A stretch of DNA of 64,000 nucleotides from Cyanidioschyzon merolae (GCA_000091205.1 AP006493.2); one strand, 5' to 3'; numbered from the stretch's first letter, positions 2,811 through 8,675 are shown. Notes: generated by a model not told the origin, from the letters alone. Translations and numbers: made by a program.

Positions 2811-5800
2811 ATGCAGCCTGTTTGGGAGACGTCCAAGGAGAACGTACAGCCCATAAAGCCAGGTAGGTCCTTGCGGAGGCTTGAAGCCGCACTAGGCGCT
2901 GCCGCTTCGGAGCAGCGAGCGCCAGAGGGTCTCGATGCTCGGGTACCCGGCCACGATCTGGACGGCGTTCACGTTCATCTCGGACGTGATTTCCCGAGTA
3001 CACGCTCGAAAGTAGAAGATTCCTTATCAGCAAAAGTGAAAAGGCAAGCAAAGGCTATCTCGGGAGGCTTGAACGAAGGCAGCAATACAACTGATAGAGA
3101 GCAACGTGCACCACTAACCGCGACTGTGGAAAAAGGAGGCGTTGCTCATGCGCGTTCGCCAGGAACGCAGCGCTGCACTAGCTCGGCTGGAAGCGATTTA
3201 GAAACGACGATCGAATGGTGGGAGCAGCGAACGTCGAGAGCCGTGGAAGAATCACCTGCTGACCCGCTAGCAATCTGGATCGCGTACATCAGATGGCGGC
3301 AGGAGGCTTTTCCGAGCGAGGGTCCTCGATCACAGCTCGCTACTGTGATGGAAACAGCTTTAAGAAAATTTGGTCCAGCCACCAGCGACCCTTATCTTGA
3401 GCAGTATATCGAGCAATACCGAAACGATTCACGATACGTTCGTCTCTGGGTGCAGTACGCCGATTTGTGTCCGGATCCAACCGAGATTTTTCTCTACATG
3501 CGAGCACAAAACATTGGGCAGTGTTTGGCTCTTTTTTACGAGGCTTTCGCTTCGGTCCTGGAAGCGAAACATCAGTTCGCTATGGCGGACCGCTGCTATG
3601 CAGAAGGGATTGAACGCGGAGCCGCCCCTTTGGACCGTTTACATCGACGCCATGAGGAGTTTCAAGCGCGAATGATGAGGCGCCTAGAGCGTCAGCGACG
3701 AGCACAACAACATGCGGGACCCCTGCGGCATGGTGATTCTGACGCAGGGGGAACCGTTCCAGTTCGACATACCTTAAGAGGCGGGCAGCAGCCAACAGGA
3801 TTGGGTGGAAATACTGCGCAGAGTACGGATATTCCACGCAGCGCGCTTTCATCGCTTCGTGAGCCAGATGCTTCTACCCGGGGCGGTCAGCCATACAGTC
3901 GTCGAAGCGCAAGTGCGGAAGCGCATGCGAACACCTCCGCCTGGAACGAGACGCAAGGCCTCCGTCGACACGACTCACAGACTGGGGCGTGGGAGCCTCG
4001 AGGATCCCACGTGAACGCAGCCTCGATGAGCGAACGACCAGGGCGGTCCTTTGTCGTTCATGCTGACAGCTCCCAGCTCACAGAGCAGTCGACGAGTGCT
4101 GCGTCAGCGCAGCTGCCAGAGCGACCCGGTGAGAGCGGCATGCCCACCGATGGGCTGCGCTTTCCTTCCGTCGCTGCTGGAAAACGAGAGAACCAGGGGC
4201 GCATCCAGCCATGGAACGGTGTGCATCTCATTCAAGACAATGAGGCTCGCTTTCAGCACCAACGTGCGATGAATGCAGCGCTCGTGCCTCATGATCAGCG
4301 ACGCACACTTGCATTCACAGTTTATGTCGATGAAGACGAGGAGGAGCAGGAGGAGCAGGAGGAGCAGCAACAGCTACATACCGCATCAGATGCTCGTTCC
4401 CTGCCGCACACCTTCGACGTGGCGGCACCGTCTACAGATCCAACTAGATCTGCTGAGCGTCGCTCATCCTCGGGAAGAAGCAGCACCGGGATGAAACACG
4501 CGTCGGAGCGCGCTGAGCACACAGAGAGCCCGTTCGTCTCCGGAAGTAGCCGCTCCGGCGCACAGCTCCATACGCCTTTGCGGACTGAGAATCTTGCCAC
4601 GAGCAGGCACGTTGTCGCTCGAAGCGATTCGGTACAAGAGCCTGAATGCTCTGTTGCGCTACGAAACACGCCGATTTCCAGCCAACCAGGTGCCCAGCGT
4701 ACCGGAGAGACTCGTGCAATGTCGTTGTCACCGCCATTCTCGCCGTCACCGTCACCACCGTCTTCATCAGCAAGTTCTGGCCAGCGCCTCAATTCCGAAC
4801 AACTCCAAGTATGCTCACCTACGCTGCACACGCGACAAGCAATGGCTGATATCGAATCGATGTTCAACGAACCCTTGCATTTTGAGTTCGAGGAGACCCG
4901 CGTGCTCCGCGAAATGACAAAGAGTGATCCTGCAAAAGCGACCCCGACAGCCGGAGCTTGGCAACAAGTCAACGACAGTTTGCGCTCGCCGCTTATTGTG
5001 GAGGCCGATGAAAATACACCCTGTCTTGCCACGTCGGCTCCCACACGAGAAGCTGAAGCGCGTGTCCACGGCAGTTCGGGTGCCCAAAGTCGAATGCTAG
5101 ACTCAAGCTTCGATGCAGATGCGAGCGACTCCGACAAGGAAAACTGCCTCGATAGTGCCCGGAAAACAGAGTCAAGATCGCAGCGTCCCGTTTACCCGAG
5201 AAGCTCTCTTGCTACTGGTGGTGTGTTGGTGGAAAGGTGTCTGCCTTCACCAACAGATGCTGATTTTATCGACGTTGAAGAAGACTTTACTGTCGACAAT
5301 GAGCGCGCCTGGGAGACGGCAGACCCGAAGCGCAGCGTCCTCGAGAGCACCGCAGAAGCAGTTGCTGCAGTTGAGCAAGCGCTCGTACCTGCGATGCAGT
5401 TCCAGTGCTCCCTGGCTACACGCCCTTCGCCTGGTATGCGACGTGAAGTGGCGGAATCAGCAGCCTGTTCGCTTCACGCAGAGACCATGCGGGGCGCCAA
5501 GAGCAGCGAAGAGCGACCCCAATGCTTCCCGACATCAGATGCTCTGGATAATGACAATGCGTCTTGTCGACAGGAGCTTTCGATACCAGATAACCGATCG
5601 TTTGAGGCTGCACCAAAGTCGCCCTCGTCGATGCGTCCGAAGGAAGCCTTGGTTATAGGGCAATGTTTGCTGGACGCGGATACCGCGCCACACCGCTCTG
5701 TGCTGCCTCCAGGACATGGCCAGTCGCCACAAGCGGCGCGTTTGGAGGACCCCGCCACGGAAACCGCTGCGCAAGGCGCGTCACATTCACCAGACGTGTT

Positions 5801-7524: not shown

Positions 7525-8675
7525 CCTCGCTGCTGTTTCAGCCAATGCGCAGGGCAAAAGCAACCAACCGTATGCTACTTGTGCTCAAGGAACAGCCCAT
7601 AGGCGCAGCGCGCTGGGAATGTGTGGTGTTACAGCGGCTCCACGAGGCCTCTGCAGCGTCAGACGGATGCTGCGAGGACCCGATCCTCACTCGTTTGCCA
7701 CGGGTAGAGACGCTTTATGAAGCACCGGATACGCAGAGCGCCTACACCATTCTGGGGCAAGTACCGCCCTGGGGCACGCTGGGCGATCTCCTCGACCTCG
7801 TACGAACCCCAGGATACGTGGAGCGACCCCATCCACATGACGTCGCGATGACTGGACCTCTCGACAACAACAACAACAACAACAACAACAGCTTTTACGA
7901 CTACAACTACAACTATCGCCACGGAGGCCTTGATCCAGCTTTTGTCGCATTTGTTGCCTCTGAGCTGCTCCAGTTGCTCCTTTTCGTGCACCGTCAGTTG
8001 ATTATGCACTGGCATATCCGACCCGAAAGTTTATGGCTGGTTCCTGGCGATAGCGCTCTCGCGCCGCGTATTCTACTCTCTGACTGGCAACACGCTTTGG
8101 ATCTGCGAGTGCTCACGCTCTTACAGCGAGGCCCGGAAGCAGAAGCGCTTGCCGCTGAAGCCAAGTGTCGCGGTGGCTGGGTGCCCAGGGCTTTTCGCTG
8201 CTTGGCGATGGAGCAACCACAGCAGCCGTGGGCGTTTGATGTGGACCTGGCTGCGGTTGGCTCTACGTTGTGGCAGCTGTTGGGGCACCAGGGGCCGCCA
8301 GCCCGGCTCGCTCCCATGAATCAGACTGATCTAGTGCGCTACCTCGAAAGCAGGAGCTGCAATGAACTGCCCCCATCGGATGGTGTCACCGCCTGGATTG
8401 AGCCTGTTGTTGGGGCTTTGGCTGGCTGCCCGTCACGAAGCTCCTCTGAGAGCGTATCCCTCTGCAGCTTGATTCAGGAAAGGTTCATTGAGCCGGTCTG
8501 TTCCGCTCACTGGAAACGCATCTGTGAGCGAGCACGCAGCTACGCCTGGTTGCTCATGGCGGTGCGACAAGAGCGCACTCCCAAGCGCTCGGATGACGCT
8601 GTCGTCGAGCGTCAACGTACAGCGCGGGCAACGTTGAGCGCTGCTCCTTCCCGATACCGGCGAACGAGCGTATAA
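2811..8675 (+). CDS. MAD3/BUBR1: MadBub-family spindle assembly checkpoint protein (BUB1/BUBR1/Mad3-like), ~1954 aa, with a degenerate C-terminal kinase domain
   Basis: N-terminal KEN box SKENVQPIKPGR (KEN codons 2835-2843) matches the BubR1/Mad3 KENxxP consensus. A second KEN box, DSDKENCLD, lies at 5136-5144. A Mad3_BUB1_I TPR-like domain spans about 3260-3700 (DPLAIWIAYIRW...NDSRYVRLWVQYADLC...IGQCLALFYEAFASVLE...RCYAEGIERGAAPLDRLHRRHEEFQARMMRR). The C-terminal region about 7740-8300 aligns to the BUB1 kinase fold (PWGTLGDLLDLV ~ YGTLLNAI; IMHWHIRPESLWL ~ IIHGDIKPDNFIL; LSDWQHALDL ~ IDLGQSIDM; DVDLAAVGSTLWQLL ~ QIDYFGVAATVYCML), but the catalytic residues are substituted. The ORF is open from 2727, and I prefer the ATG at 2811, which directly follows a CT-rich tract and places the KEN box at the N-terminus. 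Confidence 0.8.

Follow-up and report, generated by a model that had tools for sequence, protein, structure and literature searches.

A conserved, predicted pseudokinase domain in the unduplicated MadBub protein of Cyanidioschyzon merolae

Can the kinase domain of a MadBub protein lose catalytic residues and still be kept as a conserved fold where the gene has not been duplicated? This question is raised by a gene at positions 2811-8675 of a 64,000-nucleotide stretch of Cyanidioschyzon merolae DNA (GCA_000091205.1, AP006493.2); "the window" denotes that whole stretch, coordinates are counted from its first letter, and all features of the gene lie on the + strand. In the accepted picture, an N-terminal KEN box (KEN1) and an active kinase occur together in unduplicated MadBub proteins, and a dead or absent kinase follows duplication, with BUBR1 as the model. 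A sequence-only reading of the window had proposed that this gene is an unduplicated MadBub whose kinase had independently lost its activity.

The MadBub gene and its C-terminal domain

The open reading frame (ORF) was uninterrupted from 2727 to 8675 (+) with its first ATG at 2811, as the sequence-only reading had described it, and gave a complete single-exon coding sequence (2811-8675) of 1954 amino acids (aa) plus stop. The start at 2811 was backed by orthologs beginning with MQPTWE and MLPTWE at the same Met in the alignment. The 1954-aa protein was an exact match to BAM80520.1, XP_005536556.1 and UniProt M1V5E3 of C. merolae 10D; for XP_005536556.1 the databases give the names 'hypothetical protein, conserved' or 'BUB1 N-terminal domain-containing protein'. 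The supplementary data of Tromer et al. (2016) give the identical sequence as CMER_MADBUB, and CMK144C has been called Bub1/Mad3 in a transcriptome paper. In published ortholog sets, C. merolae has a single MadBub (Tromer et al., 2016; van Hooff et al., 2017), in agreement with the single-copy, unduplicated status claimed earlier. The gene, its status as a single-copy MADBUB and its motif map are already published.

Comparisons within the Cyanidiales were made with one 99%-identical strain and two diverged orthologs, one from Cyanidiococcus yangmingshanensis and one from metagenome or read-archive assemblies. The alignment of these sequences with the C. merolae protein showed conserved islands within long disordered linkers. 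Among the three Cyanidiales, identity was 78-86% in the TPR domain and 47-62% in the kinase core, and 13-26% in the linkers.

A BUB1-type N-terminal extension followed by a kinase-fold domain, a predicted pseudokinase, was assigned to aa 1420-1925 (7068-8585). When a profile of the Cyanidiales C-termini was compared with the PDB, the human BUB1 kinase was retrieved first (E=3e-5) and the Drosophila BubR1 kinase next (2e-4), with generic kinases trailing at E values of at least 0.06. A kinase-core profile without the TPR domain, searched against 1.84 billion representative proteins, gave 68 matches at E<=1e-3, and the best one outside the Cyanidiales (9e-9) was the MadBub of Compsopogon caeruleus. 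Both Mad3_BUB1_I and Pkinase were present in seven of the ten top matches tested, and nearly all matches scored 140-440 bits with a hidden Markov model (HMM) of BUB1 kinases. With hhalign, the Cyanidiales domain aligned to 18 BUB1-family kinases at 99.6% probability (E=1.2e-23, 241 columns). The BUB1-specific signatures VLKxQxP, GTL.D and F.C.EM...PW.YQ.D were present in the C. merolae domain, and AlphaFold2 (AF2) with a 21-sequence alignment yielded a confident kinase-fold model outside the inserts described below. The domain is accordingly of the BUB1-type kinase fold and carries the N-terminal extension.

Residues were mapped with MAFFT, hmmalign and the HMM-HMM alignment of hhalign; the three methods agreed and recovered the same substitutions, so that the alignment to the BUB1 kinase fold, as first proposed, did not prove to be an artefact. 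The Gly-rich loop was lost: GEGAFA of BUB1 aligned to SVSND, an insert and then ...AGKSSPAVYY, with no GxGxxG. The canonical catalytic loop HGDIKPDN was replaced by HWHIRPES within a degenerate loop IMHWHIRPES (8001-8030; IMHWHIRPE at 8001-8027), in which HGD became HWH (Asp to His1735), Lys became Arg1737 and Asn became Ser1740. The DFG-equivalent read D-W-Q (8082-8090), with Asp1758 kept and Gly replaced by Gln. Since DWG occurs in plant-lineage and nematode BUB1, the change at this site is that of the Gly alone. An ungapped HMMER alignment to 4QPM, which places LDL on IDL and shifts the DFG by six residues, was rejected; the placement of DWQ on D(L/W)G was preferred because the three methods agree on it and plant-lineage and nematode BUB1 have DWG there.

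The claim that every catalytic motif had been substituted held for the Gly-rich loop, HGD, the Lys and Asn of the catalytic loop and the DFG Gly, but three residues were kept. These were the beta3 Lys K1593 (7587-7589; VLKEQP compared with VLKVQKP in BUB1) and the alphaC Glu E1603 (7617-7619), both invariant in the three Cyanidiales, and Asp1758. Also invariant in the three were H-W-H-x-R-P-E-S, D-W and the entire activation-segment/P+1 stretch (CRGGWVP..RC..M.Q..QPWAFD.DL), which in C. merolae reads CRGGWVP..FRC..M...QPWAFDVDL (8166-8249), resembles the BUB1 family and was the best-conserved part of the domain. Among about 58 BUB1-family kinases retrieved, nearly all kept HxD..K..DN and DxG, the degenerate exceptions being the Cyanidiales, Porphyridium and a few environmental sequences. 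The pseudokinase definition by sequence asks for the loss of at least one of the beta3 Lys, the HRD Asp and the DFG Asp, and here the HRD-equivalent Asp was His. With the loss of its catalytic base, metal-binding Asn and Gly-rich loop, the domain falls under this usual definition, and its catalytic inactivity is predicted from the missing residues.

Two low-complexity inserts, both absent from BUB1 kinases, were found within the domain. Nine serines (S9) lay at 7494-7520, near the position first given, in a lineage-specific insert between the Gly-loop-aligned region and beta3; the insert aligned to gaps in BUB1 kinases and was modelled at a predicted local distance difference test score (pLDDT) <50. 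A second insert (7866-7916, pLDDT <50) preceded the helix before the catalytic loop and was absent from the two diverged Cyanidiales. This poly-Asn and YDYNYNY insert was correctly noticed by the sequence-only reading, but was described there with nine asparagines and at 7864-7905; it comprises eight asparagines (N8) at 7866-7889 and YDYNYNY at 7896-7916. In the metagenome strain of 99% identity, NNNNSNSN stands in place of the run NNNNNNNN (7866-7889).

Proposed retained function and alternative readings

We consider it probable that the ORF encodes a single unduplicated MadBub with a retained, conserved pseudokinase that has a scaffold role, and that the H2A arm of the pathway has been abandoned. 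A folded, interacting domain under purifying selection is indicated by the identity of the kinase core and its invariant motifs as compared with the linkers; about 120 positions of the domain were invariant in the three Cyanidiales, those of the hydrophobic core and of the BUB1-family signature among them. The predicted pseudokinase may still bind nucleotide and would not phosphorylate H2A. By analogy with the vertebrate BUBR1 pseudokinase, which stabilises the protein, the domain might be kept for a structural or allosteric job. The whole protein would then serve as a checkpoint scaffold and as a pseudosubstrate inhibitor of APC/C-Cdc20, and the arm leading from Bub1 kinase through phosphorylated Thr120 of histone H2A (H2A-pT120) to shugoshin (Sgo) would have been abandoned in this lineage.

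The pathway context was taken from published ortholog sets. The FASTA files of van Hooff et al. (2017) contain a single MadBub but neither Sgo nor Bub3 for C. merolae, and a single MadBub and a Bub3, again with no Sgo, for Galdieria; the C. merolae set also includes Mad1, Mad2, Mps1, Knl1, Cdc20, Cdh1, Aurora, Incenp, Borealin and Plk. A lack of Sgo would leave H2A-pT120 without a reader and so agrees with a dead kinase, and a lack of Bub3 agrees with the missing GLEBS motif. From these sequence sets, a predicted absence of the H2A-T120 pathway is favoured over its being served by another kinase.

A KARD-like motif at 6768-6833 (KARD/1320-1341 in Tromer et al., 2016) comprised the LxxIxE core LSPIPE (6780-6797) and acidic residues. 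LSPIPEGHEE at aa 1324 was the sole LxxIxE of the protein, was kept in all three Cyanidiales and lay about 95 residues upstream of the kinase-fold domain. The BUBR1 pseudokinase is reported to promote phosphorylation of the adjacent KARD and recruitment of PP2A-B56, and to co-evolve with the KARD. By analogy, the position of LSPIPE and its acidic residues beside the domain suggests that KARD and pseudokinase could cooperate in C. merolae as well.

Several observations weigh against the reading of a retained scaffold pseudokinase. Pfam Pkinase, which the sequence-only reading had named as a check, gave no match at E<=10 with either aa 1364-1954 or aa 1564-1954; this miss is a sensitivity limit and no evidence against homology, and the kinase claim was rescued by family-specific profiles and by structure. 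The AF2 model with a 3-sequence alignment was poor (pLDDT 37.6), and the 21-sequence alignment behind the confident model contains BUB1 kinases, so that this model cannot be counted separately from the sequence evidence. Within-species dN/dS (nonsynonymous to synonymous rates) was uninformative, with 30 differences in all and an omega of about 0.6 in the domain from only 6 changes. For the absence of a paralogue and of Sgo the source is published ortholog sets, and Sgo is a protein that readily escapes detection. Tromer et al. (2016) suspected that the C. merolae KARD match had arisen de novo or was a false positive. Finally, the retained ATP-site Lys, Glu and Asp and the invariant HWH make nucleotide binding or a non-canonical activity possible.

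This last point is the starting point for an atypical but active kinase, in which His1735 would act as substitute base and Bub1-type phosphorylation would persist. The invariance of HWH and of the activation-segment/P+1 stretch suggests constraint on the active-site region, and WNK, CASK and haspin are precedents, being active kinases that lack canonical residues. Nevertheless, the Gly-rich loop is gone and its region carries an insert of about 20 aa, the catalytic Asp and the Mg-binding Asn are both replaced, nearly all of the BUB1-family kinases retrieved keep the motifs that are broken here, and no Sgo is listed for C. merolae to read H2A-pT120. An active kinase is therefore regarded as unlikely. 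Neutral decay of a functionless relic after kinase loss would account for the poly-Ser and poly-Asn inserts inside the domain, the difference in the poly-Asn run between strains, the within-species omega and the complete absence of the domain from the published Galdieria MadBub model. It is very improbable all the same, as the domain has kept its identity across deeply diverged Cyanidiales far above that of the linkers, together with its invariant core and family signature, a frame open over about 1.5 kb in three lineages and a confident kinase-fold model outside the inserts.

Duplication and subfunctionalisation of MadBub is recurrent, with 16 events inferred, and the Cyanidiococcus ortholog is annotated 'BUB1 beta', both of which would fit a BUBR1/Mad3-like paralogue with an intact BUB1 kinase gene elsewhere in the genome. 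The protein itself, however, carries the BUB-type CMI and a downstream KEN box; it is classed as MADBUB (that is, unduplicated) by Tromer et al. (2016) and is the one C. merolae MadBub of van Hooff et al. (2017), and below E=1e-10 the exhaustive profile search retrieved nothing beyond the two Cyanidiales orthologs. Such a paralogue has to be judged highly unlikely. A likeness to kinases produced by the alignment alone, with an unrelated helical domain at the C-terminus, could be argued from the failure of Pfam Pkinase and from the poor first AF2 model, but is practically negligible as a possibility and already refuted: the PDB, exhaustive and profile-profile searches all pointed specifically to BUB1/BubR1 kinases.

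The predicted pseudokinase domain was also compared with its red-algal relatives. The MadBub of the red alga Compsopogon caeruleus keeps IHSDIKPDN and DFG, so that kinase loss is not ancestral to red algae. In PPUR_MADBUB of Porphyridium purpureum, neither the catalytic Asp (IIHTGLNLGSF) nor the DFG Gly (DDFH) is left, and the activation segment is poorly conserved; the published Galdieria model ends before any kinase domain. Because Compsopogon is intact, the Porphyridium residues differ and the Galdieria model is without the domain, independent degeneration is the simplest reading, as the sequence-only reading had supposed.

Besides HTGLNLGSF/DFH of Porphyridium, further degenerate catalytic loops were seen among BUB1-family sequences, for example in the combinations HCQIRPATL/NFS, HTELRPSSL/DMS and HLDIQPSTI/DYL; one degenerate BUB1-family kinase domain came from the fungus Thamnocephalis sphaerospora. 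A pattern of Lys replaced by Arg or Gln and of DN replaced by (E/A/S)(S/T) was common to several degenerate loops, to C. merolae and to lizard BUBR1 (LHPES). Such a pattern might mean that MadBub pseudokinases have arisen repeatedly along a similar route.

Other modules of the protein and the surrounding window

The N-terminal KEN box noticed by the sequence-only reading was found at 2835-2843 as KEN1 (aa 9-11 in WETSKENVQPIKPGRS; KEN1/5-28 in Tromer et al., 2016). The first 30 residues aligned to the human BUBR1 KEN1 helix in PDB entries 5LCW and 4GGD. KEN1 was invariant in the three Cyanidiales, sat in the family context WE.sKEN.qP...GR and is listed beside the KEN1 of other species (Tromer et al., 2016). 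The Mad3/BUB1 TPR domain comprised aa 135-289 (3213-3677). The profile check proposed for it, PF08311 (Mad3_BUB1_I), gave 110 bits against a cutoff of 31.4 (E=7.5e-32) over a core of aa 144-267 (3240-3611). Its PDB relatives were human BUBR1 as the best match (E=1e-25), fission-yeast Mad3 and BUB1, with E values from 1e-25 to 4e-9.

A candidate ABBA1-KEN2-ABBA2 cassette followed. ABBA1 (FVVHAD, aa 414-419, 4050-4067; ABBA1/411-422 in Tromer et al., 2016) and ABBA2 (FTVYVDE, aa 502-508, 4314-4334; likewise a Tromer feature) were both present, each recognised by regular expression and conservation. Between them, the canonical KEN2 position (aa 459-461, 4185-4193; KEN2/444-476 in Tromer et al., 2016) read R-E-N in RENQGRIQPWN. 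The context ..EN....W was thus kept with the KEN Lys replaced. The slot read HEN and QEN in the two diverged orthologs and was without Lys in all three Cyanidiales, yet the adjoining ..GRIQPWN was invariant. A coding microsatellite-like run at 4332-4373 had one EEQ unit fewer in the 99%-identical metagenome strain.

The CMI/CD1 motif, the Mad1-binding motif of BUB-type proteins, was located at aa 665-691 (SPTLHTRQAMADIESMFN, 4803-4883; CMI/665-691 in Tromer et al., 2016), with 63-82% identity among Cyanidiales. None of the peptides sampled between ABBA2 and CMI occurred in the Tromer feature file. Downstream of CMI, at a BUB1-type position, an additional KEN box was found at aa 776-778 (5136-5144) within DSDKENCLD (5127-5153), and was conserved in the two diverged Cyanidiales. 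Its coordinates had been given correctly before, but its identity as the second KEN box of BUBR1 did not stand, because it follows CMI and the KEN2 slot is the REN between the ABBA motifs; Tromer et al. (2016) file it as 'Other_KEN' (775-782), beside human BUB1 NKENYGLP. The protein combines MAD-type features (KEN1 and the ABBA cassette) with BUB-type features (CMI and the kinase fold).

No GLEBS-like core was found by regular expression in any of the three Cyanidiales proteins. Loss of GLEBS is documented in some MadBub members, and its absence is for that reason no bar to membership of the family. A conserved 50-aa motif at aa 1076-1125 (6036-6185; FQPvLrTPEReAF..MEESTsS.ASL..DaWYLDL) was 52-78% identical among the three Cyanidiales, as compared with about 20% in its flanks. 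It was not among the published features checked, and two peptides from it were absent from the Tromer 2016 MadBub feature file; all other conserved motifs are already features of CMER_MADBUB there. It may serve lineage-specific docking in place of targeting through GLEBS.

The window had the character of a gene-dense, intron-poor nuclear chromosome with long uninterrupted ORFs, among them an RSH (RelA/SpoT) enzyme, a FANCI-like protein, EF-G, an amine oxidase, ribophorin I, a SpoU methylase and a 3962-aa UBR-box protein. Upstream of the MadBub start, at a distance of about 1.1 kb, an RNase MRP RNA gene was found at 1236-1666 (-) with the full-length model of Rfam RF00030 (81.5 bits against a gathering threshold of 50, E=5e-21); the match covers 431 nucleotides for a 266-position model, which indicates expansions. 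Directly downstream of MadBub lay a 987-aa ORF (10969-13932, -) with no Pfam match, and a related Cyanidiales contig carries a syntenic 812-aa gene at 11955-14393 (-). The downstream order of the unassigned ORF, RSH and the FANCI-like gene was common to C. merolae and the ortholog contig. A 1371-aa ORF (16880-20995, -) matched FANCI solenoid-4 at 24.8 bits (E=1.4e-5), just below the gathering threshold of 25.3, and its syntenic ortholog carries the same match; at the sequence level this points to a possible component of the Fanconi-anaemia ID complex in a red alga. From about 27500 to 35700, 8 kb were without an ORF of at least 250 aa, with a GC content of 0.45-0.52 compared with 0.55-0.59 nearby. 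ORFs of 136-220 aa tested from this stretch had no Pfam match, and no tRNA or Rfam match was obtained there; possible identities are non-coding DNA, a degenerate element and a centromere-like region. A single-exon ORF of 3962 aa (50951-62839, +) had the UBR box as its sole Pfam match (E=1e-8) and may be a UBR4/BIG-like N-recognin.

Significance and comparison with known systems

Red algae are counted by Tromer et al. (2016) among the lineages in which the kinase domain was lost. In their feature file, CMER and PPUR have no 'kinase' and no 'pseudo_kinase' entry; the file has eight pseudo_kinase entries, at least two of them for vertebrate MAD paralogues. Full-text literature searches returned no paper naming the C. 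merolae MadBub a pseudokinase. The new point is modest and limited, namely a conserved BUB1-type fold with a crippled active site, a predicted pseudokinase, in an unduplicated MadBub. Overall it is an incremental refinement for a known gene of a known family. A retained, conserved and specifically crippled fold nevertheless shifts the annotation from 'lost' to 'repurposed', and C. merolae would be a second, independent case of a KARD plus a pseudokinase. The listed absence of Sgo and Bub3 would also make the alga a clean natural experiment on the non-catalytic roles of the Bub1 kinase fold, and C. merolae allows targeted gene replacement by homologous recombination. A wider scenario is offered tentatively and with more doubt than confidence: the Cyanidiophyceae might have dropped the whole Bub1-kinase/H2A-pT120/shugoshin axis, and C. 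merolae also Bub3 and GLEBS, yet have kept a conserved, perhaps nucleotide-binding pseudokinase by a B56-binding KARD. If true, the KARD-pseudokinase module of vertebrate BUBR1 would have been re-invented convergently and without a partner, the module would work without an active BUB1, and the death of the kinase would need no prior gene duplication.

Vertebrate BUBR1 (BUB1B) has the order KEN1-TPR-ABBA/KEN2/ABBA-GLEBS-KARD-pseudokinase. The C. merolae protein resembles it in KEN1, in the TPR domain with its best PDB matches, in the ABBA cassette and in the LSPIxE KARD core with acidic residues beside a pseudokinase. In contrast to BUBR1, it is without GLEBS, no Bub3 is listed for the alga, its KEN2 slot reads REN and CMI is present. 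Furthermore, by the published sets it is itself no post-duplication paralogue and lacks an active BUB1 partner, whereas heterodimerisation of the BUB1 kinase with the BUBR1 pseudokinase reportedly plays a part in BUBR1 function. The substitutions also differ: lizard (Anolis) BUBR1 has HGN and DFS where C. merolae has HWH and DWQ.

Human and yeast BUB1 show the order TPR-GLEBS-CMI-ABBA/KEN-extension-kinase and phosphorylate H2A-T120. Shared with them are the TPR domain, CMI, the KEN box after CMI, the N-terminal kinase extension and the BUB1-specific signatures. Unlike them, the C. merolae protein lacks the catalytic Asp, the Asn, the DFG Gly, the Gly-rich loop and GLEBS, is found in an organism with no Sgo listed, and adds KEN1 and the MAD-type ABBA cassette.

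The MadBub proteins of Klebsormidium, Marchantia and Compsopogon belong to the same orthologous family. Like that of C. merolae, they unite in one gene KEN1, the TPR domain, a BUB1-type kinase domain at the C-terminus and the ABBA-KEN2-ABBA cassette, in which C. merolae has REN at the KEN2 slot; the plant-lineage proteins of Klebsormidium and Marchantia also have a CMI-like motif. In all three, HGD/HSD..KPDN and D(F/W)G are intact and Pfam Pkinase gives a score, whereas neither is true of the C. merolae protein, which is also about twice as long as theirs owing to the disordered linkers. Porphyridium PPUR_MADBUB is likewise red-algal and unduplicated, with a kinase-like C-terminus that lacks the catalytic Asp and the DFG Gly. 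Its substitutions are different ones, and the PW.F/YD.D signature that is kept in C. merolae is lacking in Porphyridium. With Compsopogon intact, the degeneration in Porphyridium was probably independent of that in C. merolae.

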